Source of the DNA: Thermodesulfovibrionales bacterium
GTDB taxonomy: Bacteria > Nitrospirota > Thermodesulfovibrionia > Thermodesulfovibrionales > UBA6898
Assembly (NCBI GenBank): GCA_044450345.1
Contig: JBIOIY010000026.1
Coordinates: 1-39,349 of the forward strand
Direction: 5' to 3'
Length of the DNA: 39,349 nucleotides
The position numbers and the translations under genes are program-made. Below, piece by piece: positions 699-18,527 of the stretch (the first letter of the stretch is position 1; each line of letters starts with the position of its first letter). The notes below the pieces were generated by a model. The model worked only from the letters and a program-made list of their open reading frames with translations. It searched no databases and had not been told where the DNA came from.

Positions 699-730
699 GA
701 CAAAATTGTCTGCAAGAGCACCTAAATGTA
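699..730 (+). promoter_or_regulatory. Tandem ACA-N4-TGT enhancer-like boxes upstream of the nifB sigma-54 promoter
   Basis: gACAaaatTGTc (700-709) and ACCtaaaTGTa (720-729). The same motif occurs upstream of the other three sigma-54 promoters. Confidence 0.6.
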
Positions 731-785
731 GTTAGCCACTTTCAGTGATCGGTCGATCTTTCCTTTAAATCCGATGGTTAAGAAC

Positions 786-800
786 TGGCACCGCGTTTGC
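786..800 (+). promoter_or_regulatory. Sigma-54 (-24/-12) promoter of the nifB operon
   Basis: TGGCAC-cgcgt-TTGC, a perfect match to consensus. Confidence 0.9.
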
Positions 801-835
801 GAACAGTAAGAGAAAAATGAGATGCGAGGTGAATC

Positions 836-1741
836 ATGCAGGCGCTTAACACAGTCCCTATCAAAGCCAGGAGAAACTCCGACATTCTGAAAACCCATCC
901 GTGTTTTTCGGAAGAGGCGCACCACAAGTTCGGCAGGATTCACCTGCCGGTAGCTCCCCATTGCAACATCCAGTGCAGGTACTGCATAAGGAAATATGAC
1001 TGTGCGAATGAATCCCGGCCGGGCATCACAAGCAAGGTGCTTAGCACCTGGGAAGCGCTCGAAAGGGTGAGGGCGGTTGTGGACCGGAGCGGCAATATCA
1101 GTGTGATAGGCATTGCGGGGCCCGGGGACCCCCTGGCGAATGATGCGACCTTCGAGACGATGACCGCGATCCACGAAGAATTCCCTGAACTGGTCCTCTG
1201 CATCTCGACGAACGGCCTCGCCCTGCCGGACAGGATCGAAGAGTTGATGAGGTCCGGGGTCAGGAGCATAACGATCACAATCAATGCCGCAACGCCCGCC
1301 GTAGCGGAAAGGATCTATTCCTGGGTTTCCTACAGAGGAAAAAGGTATACCGGCAAAGAGGCGGCGCAGCGCATCGTCGCGAACCAGTGGCGCGGCCTGA
1401 TAAATGCGGTCGACGCCGGGTTCATCGTGAAGGTGAACACCGTACTGATACCCGGGATAAATGACGCCGAGATACCCCTGATCGCATGGGGGGCCGGAGA
1501 AAGGGGCGCGGACATCATGAACATTATGCCGCTCATACCGCAGGCGGAATTTGCCGATCTCTCGCGGCCGTCCCGCGAAACGATAGAGAAAAAGCGGAAA
1601 GAATGTTCAGCACACATCCCCCAGATGTCCCACTGCAAACAGTGCAGGGCCGATGCCTGCGGCATACTCGGCGAGGACAAGGACATGGAGCTTGAAGTAC
1701 TCAATGCGCGCATCGGAGAAGAATACTGCGAGATGGTGTAG
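836..1741 (+). CDS. nifB: Nitrogenase cofactor biosynthesis radical SAM protein NifB (SAM domain only, no NifX-like domain)
   Basis: HPCF, RIHLPVAP, CNIQCRYC (CxxxCxxC), ESRPG, AGPGDPLAN and C-terminal CKQCRADA; GAGG RBS. Confidence 0.88.
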   Translation: MQALNTVPIKARRNSDILKTHPCFSEEAHHKFGRIHLPVAPHCNIQCRYCIRKYDCANESRPGITSKVLSTWEALERVRAVVDRSGNISVIGIAGPGDPLANDATFETMTAIHEEFPELVLCISTNGLALPDRIEELMRSGVRSITITINAATPAVAERIYSWVSYRGKRYTGKEAAQRIVANQWRGLINAVDAGFIVKVNTVLIPGINDAEIPLIAWGAGERGADIMNIMPLIPQAEFADLSRPSRETIEKKRKECSAHIPQMSHCKQCRADACGILGEDKDMELEVLNARIGEEYCEMV

Positions 1742-1778
1742 CAGACGAACAGAGAAAGCCGGAGAAAGGAGCAGAGTC

Positions 1779-1979
1779 ATGTGTATCGGGATAGTTTTAT
1801 TTGCAGTTGCAGTAACAGGTCTGGCCTTCATGATAATCAGAAGACATGACATGCCTTACCGGGCCAAGCTTGCCGCATACATCGTGACAATAGCCTGGGG
1901 GGCCGTGTTCTTCGGCCTTTTCATCGTGCGGTACGCGCGTCCCGCGGCTTTGCTCTATACCATGGTATCGCGGCTATGA
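1779..1979 (+). CDS. Small two-TM hypothetical membrane protein (66 aa)
   Basis: AAGGAG RBS at 1766-1771, ATG at 1779, two hydrophobic stretches, and an ATGA overlap with hesA. Confidence 0.6.
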   Translation: MCIGIVLFAVAVTGLAFMIIRRHDMPYRAKLAAYIVTIAWGAVFFGLFIVRYARPAALLYTMVSRL

Positions 1980-2833
1980 AGAACAGGGCGCTTATTACTC
2001 CCCTGACTGATCTCTCGGAACGGGAGTTGGAACGCTATAAAAGGCAGCTGATGCACCGGGGGTTTACACCGGAGCATCAATCGAGGCTCAAGACAGCTTC
2101 CGTGTTAGTTGCCGGTGTCGGCGGACTGGGGGGCGCAGCGGCGACCTATCTTGCCGTGGCCGGAATCGGCAGTCTGCGTCTTGCGCACTACGGGACACTC
2201 ACCCTTTCCAATATGAACCGGCAGACTCTCATGACAGATGAACGTATCGGCGAGTCGCGTGTGCTGCAGGCGAAGGACCGAATTAAAGAGCTGAATCCGC
2301 ACGTAGAAGTTGAAATGATAAATGAAAGGACTTCGGACGGCAATATCAGCGACCTGCTCAATGGCGTCGATATCGCGCTTTCGGCACGGCCTAATTTCGA
2401 CGAACGAAGGACGTTGAACAAAGGCTGCGTAAGAGGGCATATCCCTATGATAGAGGCTGCTATGAACGGGATGGAAGGCTATCTGTTCAATGTAGTTCCG
2501 GGACAGACGCCGTGTCTTGAATGCGTGTATCCGGAGGACAATCCTGAATGGGAAGAGCTGGGCTTCCCGGTCCTGGGCGCTGTCTCAGGGATGCTCGGCT
2601 GTATTATGGCGATCGAGGCGATAAAGCTGCTCACCGGTTTCGGCAAGCCGATGCTTTCGCAGATGCTTGTCTTCAATACATTCGATATGGAATATAGAAA
2701 ATTCAGGGTGCGGAGGAACCGCTCGTGCCCGGTATGCGGCAACAGACAGGAAAAATCCATGAGTGTAGGGGCGCCGCTTGCTGCGCCCTTCCGGTCCGGA
2801 TGTGAGGAAGGCCTATGCTTAAGAGGATACTGA
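1976..2833 (+). CDS. hesA: HesA/MoeB/ThiF-family adenylyltransferase (nif-associated HesA type)
   Basis: ELERYKRQ, GVGGLG, SNMNRQ, and the Zn motifs PCLEC and CPVCG; lies in the nifB operon. Confidence 0.8.
   Translation: MKNRALITPLTDLSERELERYKRQLMHRGFTPEHQSRLKTASVLVAGVGGLGGAAATYLAVAGIGSLRLAHYGTLTLSNMNRQTLMTDERIGESRVLQAKDRIKELNPHVEVEMINERTSDGNISDLLNGVDIALSARPNFDERRTLNKGCVRGHIPMIEAAMNGMEGYLFNVVPGQTPCLECVYPEDNPEWEELGFPVLGAVSGMLGCIMAIEAIKLLTGFGKPMLSQMLVFNTFDMEYRKFRVRRNRSCPVCGNRQEKSMSVGAPLAAPFRSGCEEGLCLRGY
2765..2789 (+). repeat. GTAG-type REP-like palindrome inside the hesA 3' end
   Basis: GTAG-GGGCGC-cgcttgct-GCGCCC-T. Confidence 0.55.
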
Positions 2834-3588
2834 TATTGATTTTGACGATTGTGTCACCGGAGATTCTTTGCACCGCCGGTGCTGCACCGAATAGCTATCT
2901 CACGGTTTCGGCTGCGATGAGCCTGAAGAGCGCATTTGAGGAGATCGGGGCGATTTATGAACAGAAGTCTTCCGGGGTAAAGGTCCGTTTTAATTTCGGA
3001 GCATCAGGTATGCTCGAAAAACAGATCGAGTCGGGCGCACCCGCAGACATATTCGCATCTGCCTCCGTGAAGGAAATGGACGAGTTGGAATCGAAAGGCC
3101 TTATCATCAAAAATACCCGGTGGAACTTTGCCGGCAATTCACTGGTCCTCGTTGTTCCGGCGAATTCAAAACTGGAGGTAAGGTCACTTGATGATCTTGC
3201 GGCAAACCCGGTCAAGAGGATCGCCATCGGGAACCCCAAGAGCGTACCCGCCGGGAAATATTCTCAAGAGGCACTCAGGAACCTCCATCTTTTTGAGCGA
3301 CTAAAAGAGAAACTCGTGTATTCAGAAAACGTGGGGCAGGTCATGGACTATGTTTGCAGGGGAGAAGTCGATGGAGGCCTGGTATTTTATTCAGACACAT
3401 TTTCCCGCAGGGGCGGCTTTAAGATTGCAGGGAAGGTCCCCGACGGAAGTCATGAGGAGATCAATTATCCTATTGCGGTGATTCGGGGCACGAGGAACGA
3501 GTCTCTTGCAAAGGCGTTTATCCTGACGGTCATATCCGAAAAAGGCAAAGAGGTCCTTGAGAAGAACGGCTTTGCCCTGAGACCCTAG
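2815..3588 (+). CDS. modA: Molybdate ABC transporter periplasmic binding protein
   Basis: Signal peptide, VSAAMSL, FNFGASGML, GAPADIFASAS, AIGNPKSVPAG. Confidence 0.93.
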   Translation: MLKRILILILTIVSPEILCTAGAAPNSYLTVSAAMSLKSAFEEIGAIYEQKSSGVKVRFNFGASGMLEKQIESGAPADIFASASVKEMDELESKGLIIKNTRWNFAGNSLVLVVPANSKLEVRSLDDLAANPVKRIAIGNPKSVPAGKYSQEALRNLHLFERLKEKLVYSENVGQVMDYVCRGEVDGGLVFYSDTFSRRGGFKIAGKVPDGSHEEINYPIAVIRGTRNESLAKAFILTVISEKGKEVLEKNGFALRP

Positions 3589-3593
3589 GCGAG

Positions 3594-4259
3594 ATGGAAG
3601 ATACTGCCCTTTTCTCGATGAGGCTTTCTCTCCAGGTAGCGGCTGTCGCAACCGCGATGGTGTTTTTCTTTGGCCTGCCTGCAGCGTATCTTCTTGCGAC
3701 CAGGAAATTCAGGGGCAGGGAGATGCTGGATATGCTTCTCACCCTCCCGCTTGTTCTGCCGCCGACCGTGACCGGCTATTACCTGGTGGAGCTTTTTGGA
3801 AGAAACGGTCTTATCGGAAGCATAGTAGACAGGGCAACGGGATGGAGCATCATGTTTACGTGGCAGGCGGCGGTACTGGCGTCGTTTACTGTCTCGCTGC
3901 CCCTGATGATCAAGACCGCACGGGCCTCAATCGAGTCTGTCGATAAAAACCTTATCAACGCCTCTTATACCCTGGGGCATTCTGAATTGGAGACCGCTTT
4001 AAAAGTTGTACTGCCCCTGGCAAAAAAGGGGATAATCGCAGGGCTCGTCCTTTCCTTTGCGAGGGCGATGGGAGAGTTCGGCGCGACGCTGATGCTGGCC
4101 GGAAATATTCCCGGAAGGACGGACACCATGCCGCTGGCAATTTATTCCCTTGCAACCGGAGGAGATTGGGGACGTGCGAATATGATGGTGCTCTCCCTGA
4201 CTCTTCTTTCGGGGCTTTTCCTTTATGCGGCGAACAGGTTCGGGGGAAGGAGGATCTGA
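3594..4259 (+). CDS. modB: Molybdate ABC transporter permease
   Basis: LPLVLPPTVTGYYL, FARAMGEFGATLMLAGNIPG. Confidence 0.95.
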   Translation: MEDTALFSMRLSLQVAAVATAMVFFFGLPAAYLLATRKFRGREMLDMLLTLPLVLPPTVTGYYLVELFGRNGLIGSIVDRATGWSIMFTWQAAVLASFTVSLPLMIKTARASIESVDKNLINASYTLGHSELETALKVVLPLAKKGIIAGLVLSFARAMGEFGATLMLAGNIPGRTDTMPLAIYSLATGGDWGRANMMVLSLTLLSGLFLYAANRFGGRRI

Positions 4260-5011
4260 TGGGACTCGATGTCAGGATACGCAAAGAGGTGAAGGGATTT
4301 TCGCTGGATGTGGAATGGGAGATCGGTGATGAGCTTGTAGTGCTTTTCGGATACTCAGGGGCCGGAAAATCGATGACGCTCCAGTCGCTGGCCGGCATCG
4401 CGACGCCCGATGAGGGCCATATAGTACTTGACGGAAAAGTATATTTGGACAGTGGCGCAGGGATCAACGAACCGCCGCAGAAAAGGCCTTTCGGCTATGT
4501 ATTCCAGGACCTTGCGCTTTTTCCCCATATGACCTTGAAAGAGAATATCACCTATGGCGGCAAGGGGATAAGCAGAGCGGAACGAAATGAAAGAGCGGAT
4601 GAGATGATCGGGCTCTTCCGTCTCAAAGGGCTCGAAAGGAAACTTCCCTCCGAGATATCAGGCGGACAGAAACAGAGGGTCGCCCTTGCAAGGGCGCTTA
4701 TAAGAAGACCTGACCTGCTTCTCCTCGACGAGCCTTTTTCGGCCCTCGACAATCCGGTGCGGGTCGAGATGAGAAAGATCCTCATAGAGATAAGACGGGA
4801 GTTCGCTATACCGATTGTCCTTGTGACACATGACAGGTTCGAGGCATACACAATGGCCGACAGGATGATCATATACTCCGGAGGAAGGATTGTTCAGACA
4901 GGGTCTCCGGAAGAGATACTACATAGCCCGATGTCCCATGATGTTGAAGCACTTGTCAACCCGTCCGGATTTGCCCGGCCGTCCGCCGACGCCTTCAGCC
5001 TCTGCAGGTAA
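4259..5011 (+). CDS. modC: Molybdate ABC transporter ATP-binding protein
   Basis: Walker A GYSGAGKS, ISGGQKQR signature, LLLDEPF. The ATG at 4259 overlaps the modB stop (TGATG) and follows a GGAGG RBS. Confidence 0.9.
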   Translation: MGLDVRIRKEVKGFSLDVEWEIGDELVVLFGYSGAGKSMTLQSLAGIATPDEGHIVLDGKVYLDSGAGINEPPQKRPFGYVFQDLALFPHMTLKENITYGGKGISRAERNERADEMIGLFRLKGLERKLPSEISGGQKQRVALARALIRRPDLLLLDEPFSALDNPVRVEMRKILIEIRREFAIPIVLVTHDRFEAYTMADRMIIYSGGRIVQTGSPEEILHSPMSHDVEALVNPSGFARPSADAFSLCR

Positions 5012-5028
5012 AGATCCTGGGGGGGTAG

Positions 5029-5059
5029 TACATAATTGTAAGTACAAGACAATTGTGTA
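5029..5059 (+). promoter_or_regulatory. Tandem ACA-N4-TGT enhancer-like boxes
   Basis: tACAtaatTGTa (5030-5039) and gACAattgTGTa (5049-5058). Confidence 0.7.
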
Positions 5060-5103
5060 GCATCCATCCAATATATTGTCCTTATAAATCAAGCAAATTC
5101 ACC

Positions 5104-5118
5104 TGGCACGGTTTTGGC
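5104..5118 (+). promoter_or_regulatory. Sigma-54 promoter of the HTH-porin-APC operon
   Basis: TGGCAC-ggttt-TGGC, GG-N10-GC spacing. Confidence 0.8.
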
Positions 5119-5134
5119 AGATATCGAGCTAAAG

Positions 5135-5323
5135 ATGATGGAAACTCTTAAAGAAAAGATAAAGGAAATGGAAAGGGAAGAAATAATCAATGCCCTCAGA
5201 GAATCCGACTGGGTCATGGCAAAGGCCGCCAGGAAGCTCGGCATAACCGAACGGATGATCGGATACAAGATCAAGAAATACGGACTAAGGATAAAGGAGG
5301 TGCGATGGATCGAGCATGGGTAA
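5135..5323 (+). CDS. Stand-alone Fis-type (HTH_8) DNA-binding protein resembling the NifA C-terminal domain
   Basis: EREEIINALRESDWVMAKAARKLGITERMIGYKIKKYGL resembles the NifA C-terminus (GWVQAKAARLLG). The ATG at 5135 or 5138 is preferred because the TTG at 5114 lies inside the promoter. Confidence 0.75.
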   Translation: MMETLKEKIKEMEREEIINALRESDWVMAKAARKLGITERMIGYKIKKYGLRIKEVRWIEHG

Positions 5324-5392
5324 AGCGGGGGCTGTTGTTGACCAGGATTCGTGTGCATTAATTTGTCAAAAAAATAGTAAAAGGAGGAAGTA

Positions 5393-6499
5393 ATGAAGAA
5401 AGGGATTTTGAAAGCAGCAATGTTTCTTATGTTAATTTTGTTTGTTTCGAGGGCCTATGCCGAAGACGCAAAACCGGCGGGCCTGAACGTGGATGATATC
5501 AAGAAGGCGCTCGGCCTGAGCATCTATGTCCAGGGCGGGTATACCTATAATTTCAAGAACCCGGATTCCGGCGAGAATGACCTCAGGGTCTTCGACCACA
5601 AGTCCAATAGCTTCACTTTTGATCTCGCGGAGCTCATGTTCACAAAAGATGCGCCCCTCGGCGGCGTCGGTTACAGGCTCAAATTATCGGCCGGAGAAAC
5701 GGCAAAGTGGATACATTCGCGGGGGCTTGGCGATGTGGGTAAGGACGAGTTCGACCTCACCGAGGCGTATATCGACTATCTTGCGCCGATAGGCAAGGGG
5801 CTTAAGTTCCGGTTCGGAAAATTCGTCACCATGCACGGCGCCGAGGTAATCGAGGCGAAGGACAATTTCAATTATTCCCGTTCATTCCTCTTTAACTATG
5901 CCATTCCCTTTACGCATACCGGACTTTCGGCGGGGTATGCCTTTTCCGATAAAGTGAACGCGACCCTTTATGTGGTGAACGGCTGGGACAACACCGACGA
6001 CAACAACAAGGGGAAGACCGTTGGGGCGACTCTCGGCTGGACTCCGATAGATCCAGTAGGGTTGACATTTAATGTAATGTACGGTCCGGAGAAGGACGAC
6101 AACAACCACGACAACAGGTTCCTCTTCGACTGGGTAGGCACCTTTAAGCCGGTTAAGAACCTGACATTGCTCCTCAACACCGATTATGCGACAGAAGAAC
6201 ATTCTGCGGCTGACGGCGGCACCGGAAAATGGTACGGGATCGCAGGATATGCAAAGTATGATTTCAGCGACCTCTTCAGCGCAACGATCAGGGCCGAATA
6301 TTTCGATGATAAGGACGGCCTGAGGACGCTCACCGCGCAGAAGCTGAAAGAGATAACGTTAACCCCTGAATTCAGGGTCGCCAAGTCGATCATAGTCAGG
6401 CCTGAGTACAGACATGACTGGTCCGACCAGCAGACTTTTGATGCAAACAGCAGAAAAAGCCAGGACACCATCGCGCTCGGCGTGATGTATACGTGGTAG
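5393..6499 (+). CDS. Outer-membrane beta-barrel porin (BBP2/OmpL-like family)
   Basis: Signal peptide, GKFVTMHGAEVIE, NFNYSRSFLF, PFTHTG, NGWD, alternating beta-strands, terminal aromatic (YTW); AAGGAGG RBS. Confidence 0.8.
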   Translation: MKKGILKAAMFLMLILFVSRAYAEDAKPAGLNVDDIKKALGLSIYVQGGYTYNFKNPDSGENDLRVFDHKSNSFTFDLAELMFTKDAPLGGVGYRLKLSAGETAKWIHSRGLGDVGKDEFDLTEAYIDYLAPIGKGLKFRFGKFVTMHGAEVIEAKDNFNYSRSFLFNYAIPFTHTGLSAGYAFSDKVNATLYVVNGWDNTDDNNKGKTVGATLGWTPIDPVGLTFNVMYGPEKDDNNHDNRFLFDWVGTFKPVKNLTLLLNTDYATEEHSAADGGTGKWYGIAGYAKYDFSDLFSATIRAEYFDDKDGLRTLTAQKLKEITLTPEFRVAKSIIVRPEYRHDWSDQQTFDANSRKSQDTIALGVMYTW

Positions 6500-6511
6500 G
6501 CTGAAATAAGC

Positions 6512-6543
6512 TGCGTCCCGGCCCCGGCAGAGGCCGGGACGCA
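6512..6543 (+). other. Intergenic stem-loop between porin and permease (no U-tract; possible mRNA-stabilising or processing element)
   Basis: TGCGTCCCGGCC ... GGCCGGGACGCA, a 12-bp stem. Confidence 0.55.
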
Positions 6544-6572
6544 ATAAACAACACTAACAAAAGGAGTATATC

Positions 6573-8471
6573 ATGTCAGAAACAACAAATACACCAGTCA
6601 CCAGGGGAACACTTGGACTGACGGGTCTTACCATGAACGCGATGGCGCTGATTGCGCCCGGAGCGTTCCTCTGGCTGACCTTCCAGATGCAGTCCCTTTA
6701 CGGCGCACCGATGGCAGGCATGGCCATGTGGTTCGGCATTCTCTTTGCGCTGTTACTCTGCTTTGCCACGGCGATAAGTTATTCGGAGTTGGCAAAGCTC
6801 TATCCGGGACCCGGCTCATCGTATCTTTACGCGGAGCAGGCGTACCTTTCAAAAACACACTCATACAAGTTCGCCCGTGTCGCAAAGTTCATCACGGGTT
6901 GGGCGAGTCATCTGTACTACTGGGTCTACCCCGGCGTCATGGTCGGCGTGACCGCGATCCTGGGCGGATTTCTGATGAACCAGTTCTGGCCGGACACCTT
7001 CAGCGGCACCTATAACAGCCCGCTCTTTATGTGGCTTTTCTGTGGCGTATTCGCTCTCGGCGTGGCGTACATCGCCTACCGCGGCGTAACAGGCACTACG
7101 GCGGTCAACGTGGCGATCAATATCATCCAGATCTCGGCTCTCCTGGTCTTTTCGGTGATTGCGATCGGCTACCGCGTTCAGCATCCGCAGGGCTCTACCG
7201 GGTATCATCTCTCTAACGGCGTGGCGATAAATTATCAGGTCGCCCAGGAGGTGGTGAAGGACGACAAGGGAAATCCGACACCGGTCTTGGACGAAAACAA
7301 CAAACCTACCGTGGATAAAGACGGCAAGCCCGTCTATAAGATGCAGGACGCTCAGGACAAAGACGGTAACCCTGTGCCTGCCGACAAGGACGGCAAGGCA
7401 GTAGCCGACCCTAAACTCGCTGCTCCTTTTACGGTCGACTATTCCCCTGAAGGGGCGATCGCAAAGGACGACAAGGGGAACCCTCAGTTCAACTATCATT
7501 CTTCGGCGGGTTCGGTTGTTCATCCTCACGGCTTCAACTTCATCTTCATCCAGGCGGCGATCGCGATCCTGATCCTGGTCGGTTTCGAGTCGGTCACCTC
7601 GATGGGCGATGAGGCCAAACACCCAAAGAGAGACATCCCGAGGGCCGTGCTATTGTCGCTTGCGATCCAGGGCGCTGTCTGCTATATGATAGAGTATTTC
7701 GCCGCGAACTACTTCCTTCATAACGGCTATACCATGCCGATGGCAGGCGCCTCCGGCGCGCCGGCCGCCGACATGATGGTGATAGTCGGCACATGGCTTT
7801 TCGGCAGCTATGCATTAGGCAAGGCGTTCATGCTGGTGCAGGCATTCACGGTCTTTCTGGCGCTTATCGGCACCACGCTTTCCTGCCTCAGCACCGGCGC
7901 CCGTGTCACCTATGCGATGGGCCGCGACGAAGAAGTGCCTTCTCACTTCGGCCTCCTGCATGGCAAGACAATGTCTCCCTATAAGGCGATATGGACACTG
8001 GCGGTGATCTCGGCGATCATCGGCATTATCACGGTAACAGTGTACATGGGCGGCCAGGCGACAGCGCCCGCGGCTCTGGACAAGCACAACTTCTGGTACA
8101 GCTTCGGCATTTTCTCGCCGGAGATGTACGTGTCGCTGCCCAACACGCTGGTCATCGTAACGCTGGTCAGCAACTTCGGCACGTTCCTTTTGTACATGAT
8201 CACTTGCTGGATCGCGATGGTGGCATTCAAAGAACACCACAGCTTCAACAGCATCAAGCACGTGGTCATCCCTGTTCTGGGATTGCTTGCAAACCTGGTG
8301 ATCATGCTCTTTTACCTGGTCGGTCCGTTTACGGTCGCCGGCATGAGCTGGAAGGAGCCGTTTATTGCGCTGGGTGTCTGTGCGCTCTGGGGCATTTACG
8401 GGGCCATCTACTTCCTCAAGTCCAGTAAGGCCAAGGGCAAGGAAGTGTTTCTAAGCAGCAAGCCTGCGTAA
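6573..8471 (+). CDS. APC-superfamily (amino acid/polyamine) permease with a large inserted hydrophilic loop
   Basis: About 12 TM segments; YSELAKLYPGPGSSY, GFESVTSMGDEAKHPKRDIPRA, ARVTYAMGRD; AAGGAG RBS. Confidence 0.85.
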   Translation: MSETTNTPVTRGTLGLTGLTMNAMALIAPGAFLWLTFQMQSLYGAPMAGMAMWFGILFALLLCFATAISYSELAKLYPGPGSSYLYAEQAYLSKTHSYKFARVAKFITGWASHLYYWVYPGVMVGVTAILGGFLMNQFWPDTFSGTYNSPLFMWLFCGVFALGVAYIAYRGVTGTTAVNVAINIIQISALLVFSVIAIGYRVQHPQGSTGYHLSNGVAINYQVAQEVVKDDKGNPTPVLDENNKPTVDKDGKPVYKMQDAQDKDGNPVPADKDGKAVADPKLAAPFTVDYSPEGAIAKDDKGNPQFNYHSSAGSVVHPHGFNFIFIQAAIAILILVGFESVTSMGDEAKHPKRDIPRAVLLSLAIQGAVCYMIEYFAANYFLHNGYTMPMAGASGAPAADMMVIVGTWLFGSYALGKAFMLVQAFTVFLALIGTTLSCLSTGARVTYAMGRDEEVPSHFGLLHGKTMSPYKAIWTLAVISAIIGIITVTVYMGGQATAPAALDKHNFWYSFGIFSPEMYVSLPNTLVIVTLVSNFGTFLLYMITCWIAMVAFKEHHSFNSIKHVVIPVLGLLANLVIMLFYLVGPFTVAGMSWKEPFIALGVCALWGIYGAIYFLKSSKAKGKEVFLSSKPA

Positions 8472-8487
8472 GTGATATCAACGTATT

Positions 8488-8555
8488 TTTTTGCAGGGGC
8501 AGGCCTATGTGCCTGCCCCCTCATTCGGCGCCCATACAAGGACCGCCTGCAAAAA
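8488..8555. repeat. REP/REPIN-like nested palindrome after the APC gene
   Basis: Inner GGGGCAGGC-ctatgt-GCCTGCCCC stem within outer TTTTTGCAGG...CCTGCAAAAA inverted arms. Confidence 0.55.
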
Positions 8556-8611
8556 TCTTTTTACGCCACCCGTTTTCAATAGTATTTAATAAATGTTAAA
8601 GTGATTTGAAT

Positions 8612-10414
8612 ATGGAACTTATCTACGCTGAACTTTCTTCCCCCGGCCCTGCCCGTGAGAACAACGAGGATTTTGTTGGCTTCTGGCAGCCGCAAACAGT
8701 CGAGGAAAAACGCAGTCTCGGAGCAGTGGCTGTGCTGGCCGACGGCGTGGGAGGACTCAACTACGGTGAAGTGGCCAGCCGGCTGGCGGTAGAGACGACC
8801 CTCAAGGCGTTTCGAGAGGCCACGGGAGACCAGCCACCGCAGCAGCTCATTACACAGATGTTCAGTGCTGCTAATCGGGCCGTCTACGACAAAGGAATGG
8901 AGGACCACGGCAAGTCCCGTATGGCAACGACCCTGGCGGCAGTGGTACTGCGCAACAATGAGATCACGGTGGGCAATGTGGGAGACTCGCGTGTTTATTT
9001 GATACGTAAGGCCACGATCAAGCAGCTGTCTACCGACCATACCTATACCGGCATGCAGCAGAAATTCGGACTCATTTCCGAGCAGGAGGCCAATACCAGC
9101 GAGAACCGGTCGATCTTGACCCGGAGCGTCGGGCATGAGCTGGTGATCCGGGTGGATGTGGAGAGCGCAACGGTGTTCAAGGGAGATAAGGTTGTGCTCT
9201 GTTCCGACGGCCTGTACACGCACGTGGCAGACAGCGAAATCGCCGACATCGTCTCTCGTTATTCTCCGGCACAGGCCTGCCGTCAGCTTGTTGCCCTGGC
9301 AGAGCAACGCGGCACCGAAGACAATGTTTCCGTGCAGGTACTGCAGATCAACGACGTCGAGAAGGTCGCGTTATACCGCGGCGTGGCGATGTATCAGGAG
9401 TCGGCGGACCCGACAACAAAATATGAACTCCGGCCGGGGCAGACCCTAGACAACCGTTTCCTCATCCTCGAGACGATCAGTCGCAGCGGAATGGCGACCA
9501 TATTCAAGGCGACGGACCATAAGACCAAGAAGACCGTGGCGGTGAAGGTCCCGCTCATGCAGTTTGAGAGCGATCCGGGCTTTTACTCCCGGTTCCTTCG
9601 CGAGGAGGAGATCGGGAGCCGTCTGGACCATCCCTACATCCTGAAATTCATTCCTATCGAGGAGGGACAGCGCAGCCGGCCGTACATCGTGACTGAATAT
9701 CTGCGCGGCTACACGCTTTCGCACCTGTTGAACAGCGTCCGCCCGCTGCCCGAAAAGGACGCGACCAAACTTGCCGGCCGCGTCTGCGAGGCGCTTGTGT
9801 ATATGCATGCGCACGGCGTCGTCCATCGGGACCTCAAACCCCAGAATATTATGCTCTGCAATGACGGGACGATACGGATCATGGACTTCGGCATCGCCAA
9901 GACCAAGGAGGGGAGACGGCTCACGTTCACCGGCTTCACGCCTGCCGTCGGCACTCCCGATTATATGGCCCCCGAGCAGGTCAAGGGGAAGCGCGGGGAC
10001 GAGCGGACCGACATCTACAGCCTTGGCGCCATTCTCTACGAAATGATAGTCGGCACTACGCCGTTTGAGTGCGAGAATGAAAATCCGCTCGTGATCATGA
10101 ACGCCCGCATCAACGGCGACTCCGTTGCCCCGCGGAAACGCAATCCGAATGTCTCACCTCAGACAGAGGAGATCATCCTGCACGCCATGGAACGGGACCC
10201 AAAGAACCGCTACCAATCAGCCGCAGCGATGAAGGCCGACCTGGATAATCCGGCGGCCGTGCAATTGACCGGCCGGTGTGACAGGCTCCAGACGCCGACC
10301 CCGTGGAAGCGGAGCTGGAAGAAAGCGCTTTGGTTCGCGCTTGCCGTCACTGTCCCTACCATTATTTTCATCCTCTTGGTTCTGCTGATTATCCACCGCG
10401 GCCCGGCGCATTGA
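8612..10414 (+). CDS. Bifunctional PP2C phosphatase / Hanks-type Ser/Thr kinase with C-terminal membrane anchor
   Basis: PP2C motifs ADGVGG, VGDSR, LTRSVG, CSDGL, EDN. Kinase motifs VAVK, HRDLKPQN, DFG, GTPDYMAPE. One C-terminal TM helix. Confidence 0.9.
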   Translation: MELIYAELSSPGPARENNEDFVGFWQPQTVEEKRSLGAVAVLADGVGGLNYGEVASRLAVETTLKAFREATGDQPPQQLITQMFSAANRAVYDKGMEDHGKSRMATTLAAVVLRNNEITVGNVGDSRVYLIRKATIKQLSTDHTYTGMQQKFGLISEQEANTSENRSILTRSVGHELVIRVDVESATVFKGDKVVLCSDGLYTHVADSEIADIVSRYSPAQACRQLVALAEQRGTEDNVSVQVLQINDVEKVALYRGVAMYQESADPTTKYELRPGQTLDNRFLILETISRSGMATIFKATDHKTKKTVAVKVPLMQFESDPGFYSRFLREEEIGSRLDHPYILKFIPIEEGQRSRPYIVTEYLRGYTLSHLLNSVRPLPEKDATKLAGRVCEALVYMHAHGVVHRDLKPQNIMLCNDGTIRIMDFGIAKTKEGRRLTFTGFTPAVGTPDYMAPEQVKGKRGDERTDIYSLGAILYEMIVGTTPFECENENPLVIMNARINGDSVAPRKRNPNVSPQTEEIILHAMERDPKNRYQSAAAMKADLDNPAAVQLTGRCDRLQTPTPWKRSWKKALWFALAVTVPTIIFILLVLLIIHRGPAH

Positions 10415-10759
10415 CGTTTCAAAGGTTCGTGTCAGGGATTGGACAGAGAGAAAGATAAGCACCCAGCCATTTCAAGGACTTCAACCGACGCCCATTTAGA
10501 GTCCTCACTTTCAGAGAGCCGAAACTCTATCGAGGGTACACTCGGAATATAACACCCTCGGAAGAGCCTGAGCGCCTTCTGTTACGGCCGCCTACTCTTG
10601 CTTTTCTTCACAGAACCAGCGGCTTTTGATTGCAAAAGGAACATATAAACCTGAAACTATTTGTCGCCCTCTAAACATTTTCTACCATGCTCTTATTCGC
10701 AATTGCGGATAAAAACGCCTCTCATTTCTCAATAAATATAGCCGAACTGACGTTGAAGA

Positions 10760-12829
10760 TTGGAGGGAATGATCTGTGCTATAATTACACCTGTGGGGAA
10801 GGCTTCAAGAAACAAAAAGGGTTCAATTAATAAAGTCCCGGGCGATCAGGGCAGACATGAGAAAGGGTTAAAACCCTCGCAGGAGTCGCCATCAATAATC
10901 GCATTGCAAAAGACTGCTTCAATAATTACTTTTATCCCGATTCTCATCTTGCTGCTTATCTCTTTTGTCGTATATTTTAACGCGCTTTTCGGCGATTTTG
11001 TATATGACGATATTTCACAGATAGTGAACAATCCGTGGATCACGAATATCAGAAACATACCAACGATATTTTCCAAGAGTGTCTGGAGTTTTGAAGAACT
11101 GGGCACCTCGAACTACTACAGGCCCATGATGCACATTGTTTATATGCTCAATTATCATCTCTTCGGTCTGAAACCCTGGGGTTTTCATCTCGTTAATATC
11201 CTATTTCATTTCGGCGCATCAGTTCTTGTATTTCTGGTCGTACGGAGGCTGCTGACTGAGCATAGGGACTCAATGTGCTCTGTTTACCTTTCGCCTCCGT
11301 TTATAGCCGCTATGCTCTTTGCCTCACATCCCATCCATACGGAGGCAGTTACATGGATCGCAGGATTGCCGGATGTGGCCTTTTCGTTTTTCTATCTCCT
11401 CTCTTTTTATCTTTACATATTGTTCCGAGAAGGTGTCAAAAGAGGCTATCTATTGTCGATTCTTTCATTTTCAGTGGCAACTCTTTTTAAAGAGCCTGCT
11501 CTTACTCTTCCCATCATGCTGATAGCCTATGACTATCTCCTGAAGAAATCGGATGAGACTATCCTTGCCGTCATTAAGAGATATATGCCATATGTGGCCA
11601 TTTCAGGTGTTTATCTTTTGGTGAGATATTCTGCGCTCAGAGGGTTTGCACCGTTAGAATCCTATTCTTACCTGAGCACTTATCAATTCATCATAAACGT
11701 CTTCCCGCTTTTTAGAGAGTATCTTACAAGTATGCTTTGGCCGTTTGATCTTAATTTATGGCATACTTTCCATCCTATCAGCTCTTTATTTGAGGCGAAA
11801 GGGATGATCTCCATAGTTGTCGCTGTCCTTTTTTTCATAGGTGCTGTGGCGGCATACAGAAAAGATAGAGTAATTTTTTTCAGTCTTCTTCTCGTAGGCG
11901 TTCCTCTTCTGCCGGTATTTTATATAAAAGCAATCGGCGGGAAACCTTTTGCCGAGAGATACCTTTACTTGCCCTCTGTCGGTTTTGTATTTCTTCTAGC
12001 GATCTTTTTATCTTGGGCCGGAGAGAAGCTGCCGCGAGCTGTCAGGAGTATCACGATAGTCTTTATAGTAATAGGTGCGTTATATGCCGGCGAAACGATA
12101 ATCAGGAATAATGTCTGGCAGGATAATTTTAATCTTTGGTCAGATACGGTCAAGAAGTCACCCGATAGTGAAATGGCTCATCATAATCTTGGTCTTGCAT
12201 ACCGATCCCAAGGACAATTGGATAAAGCAATTGAAGAATATTTAACAGCATTACGGCTGAACCCCAAAAACGCAAGGGTTCATAATAATATTGGTGCTGC
12301 ATATGCATCCCAAGGACAATTGGATAGGGCAATTGCAGAATACCAAATAGCACTGCGGCTGAAGCCCGGTGACGCAAAGGCTCACAATAATCTGGGCGCC
12401 GCATACCGATCCCAAGGACAATTGGATAGGGCGATTGCAGAATACTCAACAGCATTACGGCTGAGCCCTGATTATACAGATGCTCATAATAACCTTGGTC
12501 TTGCATACCGATCTCAAGGCCAATTGGATAAAGCAATTGCAGAATACTTAACAGCATTACGACTGAAGCCCGATTTTGTAGAGGCCCATAATAATCTGGG
12601 TGTTGCATATGCATCTCAAGGACAATTGGATAGGGCAATTGCAGAATTCCAAACAACATTACGACTGAAGCCCGATTTAGTAGAGGCTCATAATAATCTT
12701 GGTCGTGCATATGCATCTCAAGGCCAGTTGGATAGGGCAATTGCAGAATACCAAACAGCATTACGGCTGAAGCCGGATTTCAATGAAGTTCGCCAGCGTC
12801 TCAGTGATATTGTCTCAAGACGGCACTAA
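10760..12829 (+). CDS. TMTC-like GT-C membrane glycosyltransferase with C-terminal TPRs (start uncertain, probably further downstream)
   Basis: FVYDD, YYRP, HPIHTEAV, ERYLYLP and a multi-TM region, followed by six TPRs. Confidence 0.75.
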   Translation: MEGMICAIITPVGKASRNKKGSINKVPGDQGRHEKGLKPSQESPSIIALQKTASIITFIPILILLLISFVVYFNALFGDFVYDDISQIVNNPWITNIRNIPTIFSKSVWSFEELGTSNYYRPMMHIVYMLNYHLFGLKPWGFHLVNILFHFGASVLVFLVVRRLLTEHRDSMCSVYLSPPFIAAMLFASHPIHTEAVTWIAGLPDVAFSFFYLLSFYLYILFREGVKRGYLLSILSFSVATLFKEPALTLPIMLIAYDYLLKKSDETILAVIKRYMPYVAISGVYLLVRYSALRGFAPLESYSYLSTYQFIINVFPLFREYLTSMLWPFDLNLWHTFHPISSLFEAKGMISIVVAVLFFIGAVAAYRKDRVIFFSLLLVGVPLLPVFYIKAIGGKPFAERYLYLPSVGFVFLLAIFLSWAGEKLPRAVRSITIVFIVIGALYAGETIIRNNVWQDNFNLWSDTVKKSPDSEMAHHNLGLAYRSQGQLDKAIEEYLTALRLNPKNARVHNNIGAAYASQGQLDRAIAEYQIALRLKPGDAKAHNNLGAAYRSQGQLDRAIAEYSTALRLSPDYTDAHNNLGLAYRSQGQLDKAIAEYLTALRLKPDFVEAHNNLGVAYASQGQLDRAIAEFQTTLRLKPDLVEAHNNLGRAYASQGQLDRAIAEYQTALRLKPDFNEVRQRLSDIVSRRH
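12176..12787 (+). repeat. Six tandem 102-bp TPR-encoding repeats
   Basis: Unit AHNNLGxAYxSQGQLDxAIAEYxTALRLxPD; the DNA core CAAGG(A/C)CA(A/G)TTGGATA recurs every 102 bp. Confidence 0.92.
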
Positions 12830-13833
12830 GGCGCACTATTGTTCGCAAAGAACGTCCCGGCCCTTTCCCTTGCTTCATCCATACTACTGCTTGACTGGAC
12901 CCTGGACGCCAAAGAATGTCCGAATTTATAGTTCTTGGCGAAGTAGTGGGTAAATTCCTTCAGCCTACCCAGGCGGTATATGGGGCGATAATCCGTGCTC
13001 AGAGCTTCGATGAAGGCCGCGTACACATCCGGCAGCGACACTACGCGCTCCGTTATATCGACGCCGAATACACTTCTGGCAATTTCGGCGAAGAGCCAGG
13101 GTCTTGTTACCGCCCCCCGTCCGAGCATCAATCCGTCGGCGCCGGATACTCTCAGGCATGTTTCCGCGTCCTCTACCGAGAAAACTCCGCCATTGGCGAT
13201 AACGGGTATCTTAATGCATTCCTTTATTTCGGCTATATATGCCCATCGCGGATTTCTTGCAAAGGGCTCATGTTTGAACCGGGCGTGCACCGTAAGCATA
13301 TCAATGCCCTCACCTTCGAGCATGGAGCAGAACGTCTTTAATTTCCCGCTGTCGGCGTCGCTGCCGAGGCGGATTTTCGCACTCAGGGGCAAGGCGGTGC
13401 GCTTTCTGGCCTCGGCCACGATGCGGCGGGCCTCATCCGGTCGTTCCATCAGCATGACGCCCGCGCCGAACTTGCTGACCGCCGGCGACGGGCAGCCCAT
13501 GTTCAAATCAACAGCGTCAGCCTTCAATGCGTGAAGCGAATCAATGGCCCGGCCTATCTCGTTGTCAGTGGAAGTTAAGAGCTGATAGGAAAGTGGGCTT
13601 TCCCTTTCGGTCCTTATCAGATACGGGGAGATGCAGGGATTTTCAGTGGGCAGTCTTCTTGCCGAGAGCATTTCGGTGGACAAAAGGCCGGCCCCGCCGA
13701 AGTCGATAATAATCCGCCGGAGGGCGCTGTGGGTAAGGCCCGCCATCGGCGCAAGGAGAAGCGGCGGATCGATCAGCAGATTGCGAAGCTGTATCGCCTG
13801 CGGCTGTGTTTGCACGTTCGTTTCAGCTTTCAT
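12826..13833 (-). CDS. tRNA-dihydrouridine synthase (DusB/NifR3 family)
   Basis: LAPMAG, DLNMGCP, KIRLG, TVHAR, PVIANGGV, GLMLGRGA. Start chosen at MKAET; upstream Met codons are possible. Confidence 0.88.
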   Translation of the reverse strand: MKAETNVQTQPQAIQLRNLLIDPPLLLAPMAGLTHSALRRIIIDFGGAGLLSTEMLSARRLPTENPCISPYLIRTERESPLSYQLLTSTDNEIGRAIDSLHALKADAVDLNMGCPSPAVSKFGAGVMLMERPDEARRIVAEARKRTALPLSAKIRLGSDADSGKLKTFCSMLEGEGIDMLTVHARFKHEPFARNPRWAYIAEIKECIKIPVIANGGVFSVEDAETCLRVSGADGLMLGRGAVTRPWLFAEIARSVFGVDITERVVSLPDVYAAFIEALSTDYRPIYRLGRLKEFTHYFAKNYKFGHSLASRVQSSSSMDEARERAGTFFANNSAP

Positions 13834-14105
13834 CGACATTAAGGGACACATTCTCCCTCTCTCTTTCCTCGGCCTTTCTCAAATCCCAATTTCGATTAAC
13901 GTTCATGAGACGCACAATTGTATCATATTCGGAAAGTGTCGATTACAAGGAAGGAAATAAAAACCAGATCAGCGGAGATTTAGGAGGGCAAGCCTTATCA
14001 GCCTGTCCAGTCTGTGACGTGCTCATTCGGTTACGGGTCCCATAAGGAAAGAGTCTTACCTGTTCGGTCTGACCGGACGATATGTGTGCGTTATTGTCTG
14101 CGTTC

Positions 14106-14135
14106 TACATTGTTGTCATGTGAGACATTTTTGTC
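14106..14135 (+). promoter_or_regulatory. Tandem ACA-N4-TGT enhancer-like boxes
   Basis: tACAttgtTGTc (14107-14116) and gACAttttTGTc (14125-14134). Confidence 0.7.
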
Positions 14136-14180
14136 GCAGATTTAACCGGTCGAATCCTTGCAAAACAACAGTATCTTGCC

Positions 14181-14195
14181 TGGCACGCTGATTGC
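14181..14195 (+). promoter_or_regulatory. Sigma-54 promoter of the divergent PII-SMR-amt operon
   Basis: TGGCAC-gctga-TTGC, a perfect match to consensus. Confidence 0.9.
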
Positions 14196-14222
14196 TGCTA
14201 CATTTTAAAAAGGAGGCCCATT

Positions 14223-14558
14223 ATGAAGAGAATAGAGGCTATTATACGTCCGACCAGGGTCGGCAGGGTATGCACTGCCCTTGAAGGAATGGGACACCCA
14301 GGCCCCAGGATTTCCCAGGTTGAAGACAAAAGTCAAACAGGCACAGGATATCTGTTAAGAGGCATCACATATAAGGCGGATCTGGTGACCAAGTCGAGGG
14401 TGGAGGTGATTGCTAAAGATGGAGAGGCAGACATGATCATCAACGCCATCCGCGAGGCGGCCTTCACCGGCCAAAACGGAGACGGCGAGATATTCGTGTA
14501 TGCCATTGAAGATGTCGTACGTATACGGACCGGTGAAAGTGGGGAGGCGGCGATATAA
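14223..14558 (+). CDS. Divergent PII (GlnB/GlnK-family) signal protein
   Basis: MKRIEAIIRP, TGQNGDGEIFV, RIRTGESGEAAI; T-loop base and B-loop Lys are altered; AAGGAGG RBS. Confidence 0.88.
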   Translation: MKRIEAIIRPTRVGRVCTALEGMGHPGPRISQVEDKSQTGTGYLLRGITYKADLVTKSRVEVIAKDGEADMIINAIREAAFTGQNGDGEIFVYAIEDVVRIRTGESGEAAI

Positions 14559-14645
14559 TAAGGTGCTCGCAAGTAAAAACTCATTAACTTGGATAACCTC
14601 ATCGCGCTCTTCGGGCTGCGCATCTTTATCGTGCGAGGTTTACAG

Positions 14646-14969
14646 ATGACGTATCTTGCCTGGCTCATTTTCGTTGGTGCGGCAGTTCTGGAGGTCGGCG
14701 GCGATGCGGTCGTTCGCAAGGGACTTCGCGGAAGCAGTCTCATCATCATACTGATTGGATTCGCCATGTTGGGTTCTTACGGGGTTGTCGTCAATACGGT
14801 GAAATGGGATTTTTCAAAATTGCTCGGAGTATACGTTGCGATCTTTGCGATCATAAGCATATTATTCGGTCGGTTTGTATTCGAAGAAAATATACCAACG
14901 ACGACCTGGATCGGATTGATGGTTATCGTTTGCGGCGGGATGATAATCCAGTTTGGGGAGAGGATATAG
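14646..14969 (+). CDS. Small 4-TM SMR/DMT-like (YnfA-like) membrane protein
   Basis: 107 aa, four hydrophobic helices, TM1 Glu in AAVLEVGGD, GVYVAIF; GAGG RBS. Confidence 0.7.
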   Translation: MTYLAWLIFVGAAVLEVGGDAVVRKGLRGSSLIIILIGFAMLGSYGVVVNTVKWDFSKLLGVYVAIFAIISILFGRFVFEENIPTTTWIGLMVIVCGGMIIQFGERI

Positions 14970-15034
14970 TCACACAACGGCTGTCCGGATTATATGGACG
15001 TGGAAAAGATCAACAGCGATAGGGAGATGACTAG

Positions 15035-16588
15035 ATGAAGCAATTTCTAATCATAGGATTCTTGATGGTATTTATACTTACGGCGAACATGCTGTTTGCC
15101 GAAGAACAGGTGCGGAAGGCTAACCCTCCTTCTCAGGCTGAGCAGGATGCGCCCGCTCAGCCTGCACCTGCTACACCCGCCCCGGTCTTCAAAGCGGACC
15201 CCTCGGGCGCGAATACGGGAGGCGCCGCCGATGTCGTCGGCGCCACGGCAGGCGCACCGACTGCGGACGATATGAAGAAACTGGCCGCGAACGAGCCACT
15301 CGCGGTGAAACTGGCGGATGTCATAGGCCATAATCGGACTGCTCTTAATGTTGTATGGATGCTGGTCTGCGCGTATCTCGTCTTTTTTATGCAGGCGGGC
15401 TTTGCCATGGTGGAGACCGGCTTTACGAGGGCGAAGAACGCGGGCCATACCATGGCGATGAACATGATGGTGTTTGTCTTTGCGGTGCTCGGCTACTGGA
15501 TCTGCGGCTACGCGTTCCAGATGGGCGGCAAGGGATTTTTTCTTTCCGGATCGTCCTATGATGTGTCAATCATCACTCTCTTCATGTCCCAGGTGGTCTA
15601 TATGAACATCGCGGCCACAATTCCGACAGGTGCAATGGCCGAGCGCTGGACATTCAAGTCATTGGTCGTCTATGGGTTCTTTATCTCCATGTTCACCTAC
15701 CCGCTGTATGCGAACTGGGTATGGGGCGGCGGATGGCTCTCGCAACTCGGCAAGAACTTCGGCCTCGGCCACGGGGTCCTCGATTTTGCCGGCTCATCTG
15801 TGGTCCATATGGTTGGAGGAGTTTCGGCGCTGACAGGGGCGATCGTCCTTGGTCCCCGCATGGGAAAATATAGGGCCAATGGAACTCCCGTTGCAATTCC
15901 CGGACATCACATTCCGATGGCCATCATCGGGTGCTTGATACTCTTCTTTGGGTGGTTCGGGTTCAATTCCGGCCCAGCCCTCGCGGCCGGCAATTTGAGA
16001 ATCGGGGTCATAGCGGTAAATACTATGCTTGCATCCGCGGCAGCGTCCTTCTCGGCGATGCTCTACATGTGGATCAAGTATGGGAAACCGGACCTCTCGA
16101 TGTGCGCGAACGGACTCCTTGCCGGCCTTGTCGCCATCACTGCGCCGTGCGCATTTGTGAGTACCGTTGGAGCGGTAATTATCGGGCTTGTTGCCGGAGT
16201 TCTTTGTTGTGCGAGTGTCTTCTTCGTTGAACGCACGCTTAAGGTGGACGATCCTGTGGGCGCGGTGTCGGTCCACGGCACGTGCGGCGCCTGGGGCCTT
16301 ATCGGGCTCGGACTCTTTGCCGACGGCACATACGGCGACGGCCTGAACAATGTCCCCGGCACGGTCAAAGGGCTGTTTTATGGCGGCGCATCACAGTTCG
16401 CGGCCGAAGTAATAGGTGTCGTAGTAAACTTCGTCTTTGTATTTATCGTGATGTATGCATTCTTCACGCTGCTGAATAAAATCATTCCTCTGCGTGTGTC
16501 TGAAGAAACAGAGTTCGAAGGCCTTGACCAGAACGAAGTGGCTGTTACCGCATATCCCGACTTCAGTGTCACGAAGGCCCGCAGATAG
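15035..16588 (+). CDS. amt: Ammonium transporter (Amt family), paralog 1 with atypical S1-site residues
   Basis: FFMQAGFAMVETG, GAMAER, DFAGSSVVH, GWFGFN, DDPVGAVSVHG. Confidence 0.92.
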   Translation: MKQFLIIGFLMVFILTANMLFAEEQVRKANPPSQAEQDAPAQPAPATPAPVFKADPSGANTGGAADVVGATAGAPTADDMKKLAANEPLAVKLADVIGHNRTALNVVWMLVCAYLVFFMQAGFAMVETGFTRAKNAGHTMAMNMMVFVFAVLGYWICGYAFQMGGKGFFLSGSSYDVSIITLFMSQVVYMNIAATIPTGAMAERWTFKSLVVYGFFISMFTYPLYANWVWGGGWLSQLGKNFGLGHGVLDFAGSSVVHMVGGVSALTGAIVLGPRMGKYRANGTPVAIPGHHIPMAIIGCLILFFGWFGFNSGPALAAGNLRIGVIAVNTMLASAAASFSAMLYMWIKYGKPDLSMCANGLLAGLVAITAPCAFVSTVGAVIIGLVAGVLCCASVFFVERTLKVDDPVGAVSVHGTCGAWGLIGLGLFADGTYGDGLNNVPGTVKGLFYGGASQFAAEVIGVVVNFVFVFIVMYAFFTLLNKIIPLRVSEETEFEGLDQNEVAVTAYPDFSVTKARR

Positions 16589-16627
16589 GCACAACTGCAA
16601 TTATCTTTCAAGGAGTATTGCGACATA

Positions 16628-16673
16628 AATATTACTACAAAAATGTATCAATGAACATTTTTGTAGTAATATT
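16628..16673. promoter_or_regulatory. Perfect 19-bp inverted repeat containing two ACA-N4-TGT boxes
   Basis: AATATTACTACAAAAATGT-N8-ACATTTTTGTAGTAATATT. Confidence 0.8.
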
Positions 16674-16710
16674 ATTTTTGAGTTTCATTTAAAATCAAGG
16701 GGTTCTATTA

Positions 16711-16725
16711 TGGCATGTTTTTAGC
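16711..16725 (+). promoter_or_regulatory. Sigma-54 promoter of amtB-glnK
   Basis: TGGCAT-gtttt-TAGC (GG-N10-GC); IHF-like AATCAAggggTT at 16693-16704. Confidence 0.75.
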
Positions 16726-16763
16726 AAACCTTTTTGTAACAACTACCATAATGGAGGTTTGAG

Positions 16764-18179: not shown

Positions 18180-18527
<348 letters not shown>

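Follow-up and report, generated by a model that had tools for sequence, protein, structure and literature searches.

Paired boxes at four sigma-54 promoters

We analysed a window of 39,349 nucleotides (the whole contig JBIOIY010000026.1, assembly GCA_044450345.1) from a Thermodesulfovibrionales bacterium of the phylum Nitrospirota. It contains four sigma-54 promoters, which stand before nifB and a modABC-like molybdate transporter, before a gene for a stand-alone NifA-type helix-turn-helix (HTH) protein (hereafter the small HTH) and a porin gene, and before two groups of ammonium transporter (amt) and PII genes (Table 1). An earlier note on this DNA had described four -24/-12 boxes (TGGCA-N8-GC), each preceded by two ACA-N4-TGT boxes, and had attributed them to a single NifA-like activator. 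All four promoters and all eight upstream boxes were found where it had placed them; its distances of 57, 46, 47 and 47 bp are the gaps (bases between the last TGT and TGGCA) of 56, 45, 46 and 46 counted one further.

Each promoter has the -24 GG and -12 GC elements with N10 between them shortly 5' of a gene, and the upstream palindromic sites are conserved and helically phased, as in enhancer-dependent sigma-54 promoters. The box consensus is approximately [CG][TG]ACA-WWWW-TGT[AC][GC]. The AC-N6-GT core is kept in 8/8 window boxes, which differ from TAC-N6-GTA, the dyad of AnfA/VnfA type, by 0–2 mismatches. No exact match to the canonical NifA upstream activating sequence (UAS), TGT-N10-ACA, occurs among the four pairs of the window, so that it is not the conserved unit here.

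For counting, we used a composite pattern: a pair with at most one mismatch, spacing 17–21, 40–70 bases 5' of TGGCA-N8-GC. It occurs five times in the window, at the four promoters and at an overlapping TGGCA-N8-GC at 5115, which uses the same boxes as 5104, and once, at nifH, in the 3.15 Mb outside the window. Block-wise shuffles that keep the local dinucleotide content gave none (0/300). The two minus-strand TGGCA-N8-GC sites of the window (of seven in total) have no box. The paired boxes are real and conserved and most likely functional, and both the ACA-N4-TGT unit and the helical phasing claimed earlier are supported.

Scored against WATCAANNNNTTR, which we take to be the IHF consensus, an IHF-like 13-mer stands in register at all four promoters, starting 18, 17, 18 and 18 bases 5' of TGGCA. 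In the relatives considered below such matches are enriched, and their position is fixed at 18–19 bp.

Table 1. Positions of promoters, boxes and genes in the window (1 is its first letter)
Feature	Position	Strand	Remarks
Enhancer pair 1	698..731	+	14-mers 698-711 and 718-731; boxes at 700 and 720 (ACC); spacing 20, inner N10
IHF-like site, promoter 1	768..780	+	2 mismatches
Sigma-54 promoter 1	786..801	+	-12 element canonical TTGC; gap 56
nifB, radical-SAM-only form	836..1741	+	TIGR01290 343.3 bits, cut-off 343.65
MoeB/ThiF-like adenylyltransferase	1976..2833	+	behind nifB; presumably HesA-like, from its context
modABC-like molybdate ABC transporter	2815..5011	+	binding protein Pfam SBP_bac_11; permease and ATPase by inspection only
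Enhancer pair 2	5028..5060	+	14-mers 5028-5041 and 5047-5060; boxes at 5030 and 5049; spacing 19, inner N9
IHF-like site, promoter 2	5087..5099	+	2 mismatches
Sigma-54 promoter 2	5104..5119	+	-12 element TGGC; gap 45
Small HTH (NifA-type Fis HTH protein), 62 aa	5135..5323	+	first gene behind promoter 2
Outer-membrane beta-barrel porin	5393..6499	+	Pfam BBP2
APC-family permease	6573..8471	+	15-bp hairpin at 6511-6544 just before
Enhancer pair 3	14105..14136	+	14-mers 14105-14118 and 14123-14136; boxes at 14107 and 14125; spacing 18, inner N8
Weak IHF-like site, promoter 3	14163..14175	+	3 mismatches
Sigma-54 promoter 3	14181..14196	+	-12 element TTGC; gap 46
Divergent PII protein	14223-14558	+	first gene behind promoter 3
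YnfA/UPF0060 membrane protein	14646-14969	+	behind promoter 3
Ammonium transporter (amt)	15035-16588	+	behind promoter 3
Enhancer pair 4	16635..16666	+	14-mers 16635-16648 and 16653-16666; boxes at 16637 and 16655; spacing 18, inner N8; weak third box at 16621
IHF-like site, promoter 4	16693..16705	+	1 mismatch
Sigma-54 promoter 4	16711..16726	+	-12 element TAGC; gap 46
amtB	16764-18104	+	behind promoter 4
PII glnK/glnB	18189-18527	+	after amtB, promoter 4

The nifB, MoeB-like and modABC-like genes form a tight run behind promoter 1, with the modABC-like reading frames overlapping or abutting, and modABC would be co-transcribed from this promoter. The nif and ammonium uptake parts of the regulon drawn up in the earlier note are borne out, but its organic nitrogen uptake was a guess: the APC permease has no assigned substrate, and the hairpin cuts its gene from the porin gene. 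Two weaker boxes (10.1 and 8.6 bits) just 3' of promoter 4, at 16726-16756, could be repressing sites.

Sites elsewhere in the genome and in other genomes

A matrix trained on the eight window boxes only was used to score the 1924 candidate promoters of the genome. The top-ranked candidate beyond the training sites is nifH (C71:9512; spacing 20, gap 56), with 19.3 bits compared with 12.4 for the next, so that the proposal of the earlier note to look for the motif before nifH succeeded with the best held-out promoter, and it succeeded in relatives as well. The nitrogenase is of the Mo type: the best match of NifD is TIGR01282, with scores (for a partial protein) of 523 for nifD against 198 and 188 for vnfD and anfD.

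At the promoter of the third amt gene (C47), a single strong box lies at gap 56, with others at 128 and 145; the IHF consensus is matched perfectly there and in the same register. At this gene (G000:C47:2801-3124, minus strand) a second sigma-54-like box lies 323 bp 5' of the first, from which transcription would cross four enhancer boxes.

Conservation was followed in two sets of 29 upstream regions. In the 201 genomes of the class, nifH gave 90 matches, of which the 30 best were taken; for the small HTH, too, the 30 best matches were used, and this genome was removed from each set. In the nifH set, 28/29 have a sigma-54 box and 27/29 a box pair; all 27 pairs have spacing 20, so that the inner pair is exactly TGT-N10-ACA, the gaps are 45–46 (5), 54–59 (14) and 67–69 (8), and the -12 element is TTGC in 21. 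In the small-HTH set, the promoter is present in 29/29 and the pair in 27/29, with spacing 18–19 in 22 pairs, a gap of 44–47 in all 27 and an inner spacing of 7 to 11, and the -12 element is never TTGC (TGGC in 16, TAGC in 6; TCGC also occurs). Shuffled controls gave a pair in only 9/5400 and 6/5400 cases for the nifH and small-HTH sets, respectively. On the basis of spacing, gap and -12 element there are two promoter classes, a nif type (spacing 20, TTGC) and an uptake type (spacing 18–19, gap 44–47, TGGC/TAGC/TCGC). The N4 of the box is fixed, and over 106 boxes its centre is 96% A/T. A single box in phase is found at the C47 amt gene and also at L034.

A third box 13–14 bp further 5' is present in several relatives' promoters (L006-L034, L161-L189). 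It should also be noted that NifH (G000:C71:9564-10403, L006-L012) is 97–99% identical across several families of the order, which suggests that either the nif cluster was transferred recently or constraint is strong.

An exact scan of GTDB, which demanded perfect A/T-centred boxes and is thus biased to strong sites, gave at least 123 matches. The -12 GC, absent from the search pattern, is present in 60 of the 123 matches listed; the gaps of these 60 fall into three clusters one turn apart, with a resultant of 0.70 at a period of 10.5 versus 0.25 in the others. Nitrospirota account for 52 of the matches listed, and 41 of these 52 lie directly 5' of genes for the small HTH (25), nifH (8), a porin (4), amt (2), glnK or ynfA. 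Among those listed, single matches lie before nifB, before a gene of Desulfovibrionales that by inspection is homocitrate-synthase-like and, in Omnitrophota, before amt. Two Pelosinus loci (L126, L158) carry the same tandem with gap 66 before an alanine-dehydrogenase-like gene (by inspection).

The enhancer is also found where nitrogenase is not: among five chosen genomes without a match to nitrogenase component 1 (four of them single-contig), 4/5 carry the exact pair with a promoter, 5' of amt or the small HTH gene, and the reversed-pattern control in these five genomes gave no matches.

The candidate activator and the small HTH

The genome encodes 20 full sigma-54 activator domains, and only one protein of the NifA family, at C2:146387-147913 (hereafter the C2 activator). 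It has the architecture GAF-AAA(GAFTGA)-Fis HTH and passes the NifA model TIGR01817 with a score of 594 (cut-off 528.85). In a quick tree with 19 own activators, no other one joins it in the NifA clade (support 89), which also holds six proteobacterial NifA proteins and an activator of the Desulfovibrio plasmid pDV; C1:212591, interrupted by an internal stop, is the one own activator that this tree omits.

Gene order also links this protein to the boxes. Its orthologues adjoin nifH in three genomes (G062, G090, G027), and in a fourth (G104) the activator gene is followed in turn by enhancer, small HTH, porin and amt. We therefore regard the C2 activator as the most likely, though predicted, reader of the boxes; as the genome's sole NifA-family protein, syntenic with the targets, it also answers to the single NifA-like activator of the earlier note. 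At the cut-off of E ≤ 1e-150, activator matches are present in 171/201 class genomes and nifH in 90, with both in 84 and the activator without a nifH match in 87; the weaker ones among these activator matches are outside the scope of the tree, and many of the class genomes are incomplete.

The HTH segment GWVQAKAARLLGITPRQIGY (20 residues) is identical in the C2 activator and in Paraburkholderia phymatum NifA, the targets of which carry TGTCG-N6-CGACA sites. The half-site would thus be the same and its orientation inverted. The C2 activator has one Cys in its first 190 residues and therefore lacks the GAF cysteine motif. The best solved match to its HTH is PDB 2M8G, which we take to be Nlh2; Nlh1 and Nlh2 are NifA-like activators of Aquifex aeolicus, which is not a diazotroph.

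Divergent from the NifA-family gene on C2 runs a glutamine amidotransferase-glnB-glnA gene group, and a single GnfM/NtrC-like TGC-N11-GCA site lies 5' of that group (G000:C2:145759).

That the first gene behind promoter 2 encodes a stand-alone NifA-type HTH protein had not been part of the earlier finding. The best family match of the small HTH is the NifA C-terminus, and its best match in the genome is the HTH of the C2 activator; its helix is invariant (ITERMIGY against ITPRQIGY). It is present in 126/201 class genomes, 117 of which have the activator. A natural stand-alone NifA HTH was the subject of no title in our open-access literature search. The small HTH may compete for the boxes and have a feedback role; an isolated NifA domain binds weakly, as far as the accessible part of PMC10590331 goes, which speaks against strong repression by the small HTH unless that protein differs. 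Its gene comes first behind the enhancer, followed by porin, amt or glnA, and some genomes have 2–3 copies; a degenerate look-alike reading frame lies at G000:C72:7119-7304.

A model of the regulation, its alternatives and related systems

We consider it likely that a one-component NifA-family activator, C2, reads paired ACA-WWWW-TGT operators and controls the nif and ammonium uptake genes. Each box would be one operator for the DNA-binding domains of C2, and two operators 18–20 bp apart would gather activator dimers. An IHF-like protein would bend the DNA about 18 bp 5' of the -24 box, and the ATPase ring would meet the sigma-54 polymerase; this geometry would explain the gaps of 45–47, 55–59 and 66–69 bp. 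Under nitrogen limitation, nifHDK, nifB-modABC, three amt genes with PII proteins and the porin operon headed by the small HTH would be switched on, with nitrogen status probably acting via the GAF domain and PII, by analogy with established NifA biology.

Several observations weigh against this model. The relatives are kin, so that the two sets are not independent, and the proteins of the nifH set are 88–99% identical. IHF matches with at most one mismatch occur at 17/27 small-HTH promoters versus only 6/27 nifH promoters, and the nifH promoter of this genome has none. The genome search returned one IHF-beta-like gene, under its cut-offs, and one HU; an IHF alpha gene was not found in this genome (91% complete). 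Overall, the involvement of IHF is supported to a moderate degree. In the glnB-glnA region of this genome (C2:144400-146450) neither a strong box nor a clear sigma-54 promoter is present, so that the motif that the earlier note had proposed to seek before glnA failed to appear here; two relatives (L183, L187) do have the enhancer and the small HTH gene directly 5' of glnA. Weaker look-alike boxes are present at the locus of a response-regulator activator on C1. The support of the NifA clade is less than 95 and comes from a quick tree only, and because of the completeness of 91%, another activator could be missing from the assembly. Finally, 16 Aminicenantes/WOR-3 matches among those listed, 14 of them with the -12 GC, precede unrelated secreted-protein genes; the motif is thus not tied to one activator. 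The Aminicenantes/WOR-3 tandem (L044, L067, L081, L098, L103, L111, L115, L119, L121, L130, L135, L142, L146) has spacing 20 and gap 54–57 and probably belongs to a separate regulon with another activator.

The working unit is most likely ACA-WWWW-TGT, because its N4 stays constant, with A/T at the centre, whereas the inner spacer is of variable length. The same activator could, however, use another register: either the inner TGT-N(8–10)-ACA, which is the classic NifA site with a looser spacing, or four TGT half-sites that act independently, each bound by a monomeric HTH domain on a flexible tether. The recognition helix shared with Paraburkholderia phymatum NifA and the uniform inner TGT-N10-ACA of the relatives' nifH pairs favour this reading, but we judge it improbable given the variable inner spacing at the small-HTH promoters, the value of 8 at Desulfovibrio nifH, the constant N4 with its A/T centre and the single boxes in phase; moreover, AnfA sites of like geometry are each partly active alone, according to the part of PMC7294313 available.

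Another activator as reader of the boxes, for example a response-regulator activator such as C1:173651, an NtrC/GnfM-like protein or the product of a gene missing from the assembly, has an even smaller chance of being correct. It would fit the tandems at non-nitrogen genes in Aminicenantes and WOR-3, the similar predicted motifs of two Desulfovibrio regulators, the number of activators encoded in the genome and the six nifH-positive class genomes without a NifA match at the cut-off. Against it stand the gene neighbourhoods of the NifA orthologue, which adjoins nifH or the enhancer-HTH-amt arrangement, and the Desulfovibrio plasmid activator, which has the same predicted motif and the same recognition helix. 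The GnfM motif TGC-N11-GCA differs from the boxes, and no such site was found at any of the four window promoters; GnfM was rejected as the activator on this ground. Chance, AT-rich bending sites or ACA-N4-TGT sites of the OmpR family (GraR/BceR type) unrelated to sigma-54 could be proposed from the 471 single boxes in the genome and from the occurrence of this string in what could be consulted of the literature on OmpR-type systems; the shuffles, the strict phase to the sigma-54 box, the recovery of nifH as a held-out promoter and the conservation across the class effectively refute this reading.

If the C2 activator does read the boxes, the regulon extends a switch already predicted in Desulfovibrio, and its promoter architecture is that of the textbook. 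The novelty of the site implied earlier does not hold: for the nif activator DVUA0143 of Desulfovibrionales, the accessible part of Kazakov et al. 2015 (PMC4641369) gives the same 14-bp palindrome, often in pairs 18–23 bp apart, before nifH/nifV, and for DVU1949, whose regulon includes amt, glnA and glnN, a similar 16-mer at amt and glnA, while AnfA and VnfA share the AC-N6-GT geometry (PMC7294313, in part). The DVUA0143 and DVU1949 sites are predictions only, too, as given there. With our window-trained matrix, the two published DVUA0143 sites are the only boxes in the nifH-nifV intergenic region of Desulfovibrio vulgaris. With C2, the pDV plasmid activator shares 47% identity and the recognition helix, and it too scores above the NifA cut-off; in the quick tree, the two are not grouped to the exclusion of proteobacterial NifA. 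Desulfovibrio divides nif and assimilation between two regulators, whereas one candidate spans both here, and the boxes lie nearer to the promoter (45–69 bp) than at Desulfovibrio nifH (81). A stand-alone HTH target gene is found here, and the portion available of the DVUA0143/DVU1949 description (PMC4641369) names none. The DNA-binding domain labelled DVU1949 in Additional file 2 of PMC4641369 is encoded on pDV (L035:2405-3952), so that the first-row labels look shifted; that the pDV protein is DVUA0143 is our inference.

In Rhodobacter capsulatus, AnfA uses two TAC-N6-GTA sites, tested in vivo and by electrophoretic mobility shift assay (Demtroder et al. 2020, PMC7294313, as available in part), and the VnfA site is cited there as GTAC-N6-GTAC. 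As in our case, two tandem palindromes stand 5' of a sigma-54 promoter, and theirs are both needed for full activation. Here, however, the targets are Mo-nitrogenase and uptake genes, and in the box the inner A/T pairs are fixed and the centre is A/T. With neither the GAF cysteine motif nor an alternative nitrogenase as target, C2 is not established as AnfA or VnfA. Proteobacterial NifA shares with the present system the GAF-AAA-HTH architecture, a nearly identical recognition helix, the TGT(C/A)G half-site and the promoter layout; here, in contrast, the half-sites are inverted (ACA-N4-TGT) and doubled, linker cysteines are absent, and the regulon reaches amt/PII and persists in genomes without nitrogenase. 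The Geobacter GnfL/GnfM system likewise places nif, glnK-amtB and related genes under one sigma-54 activator via tandem sites; unlike C2, GnfM is a two-component NtrC-like protein with TGC-N11-GCA sites (Ueki and Lovley 2010, PMC2995071, in the part available). The enhancer is therefore most likely a tandem of AnfA/DVUA0143 type, predicted to be read by a NifA-family protein, and not the canonical NifA UAS.

A wider proposal is tentative, and we hold it to be doubtful: the NifA family of Thermodesulfovibrionia would be a general nitrogen regulator, kept with or without nitrogenase, that reads the proteobacterial TGT half-site inverted; the textbook NifA site may derive from the inner pair of the spacing-20 nif tandem; and the induced free HTH copy may compete for the boxes and set feedback or keep the uptake class (18–19 bp) apart from the nif class (20 bp). 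That remnants of the outer half-sites persist at proteobacterial NifA sites was unsupported: an outer ACA-N4 occurs in 1/24 and an outer N4-TGT in 0/24 UAS matches (22 distinct). These counts, with the spacing of 18 in the Desulfovibrio nifH pair, speak against a simple ancestral array of four half-sites.

In the open-access literature searched (RegPrecise and subscription journals were outside its scope), we found no description of the Nitrospirota regulon, of one activator for nif and uptake genes, of the activator in the 87 genomes without a nifH match, of a Paraburkholderia-identical helix facing inverted half-sites, of the two spacing classes or of a stand-alone HTH target. The boxes make a nitrogen regulon readable in a class of sulfur-cycling Nitrospirota that is large and mostly uncultured, and the motif finds nitrogen-regulated operons there. 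Given those 87 genomes, a "nifA" annotation within the class does not mark nitrogen fixation. The regulon also offers a clean test of one recognition helix serving two site geometries, and links NifA, AnfA/VnfA and the Desulfovibrio regulators. Experimental tests are feasible, since cultured nitrogen-fixing Thermodesulfovibrio strains with a nifA homologue exist; the available part of PMC12501866 notes this homologue without promoter analysis.

Elsewhere in the window, a PP2C phosphatase fused to a Ser/Thr kinase is encoded directly 3' of the APC permease (8606-10414, plus strand). NuoE/NuoF-like and formate-dehydrogenase-like genes occupy 18818-25146 (plus strand; by inspection), the last subunit of which is split by an in-frame stop at about 23514, possibly selenocysteine (by inspection), and a reading frame for a group II intron-type reverse transcriptase/maturase with a YADD motif lies at 30377-32122 (plus strand; by inspection).

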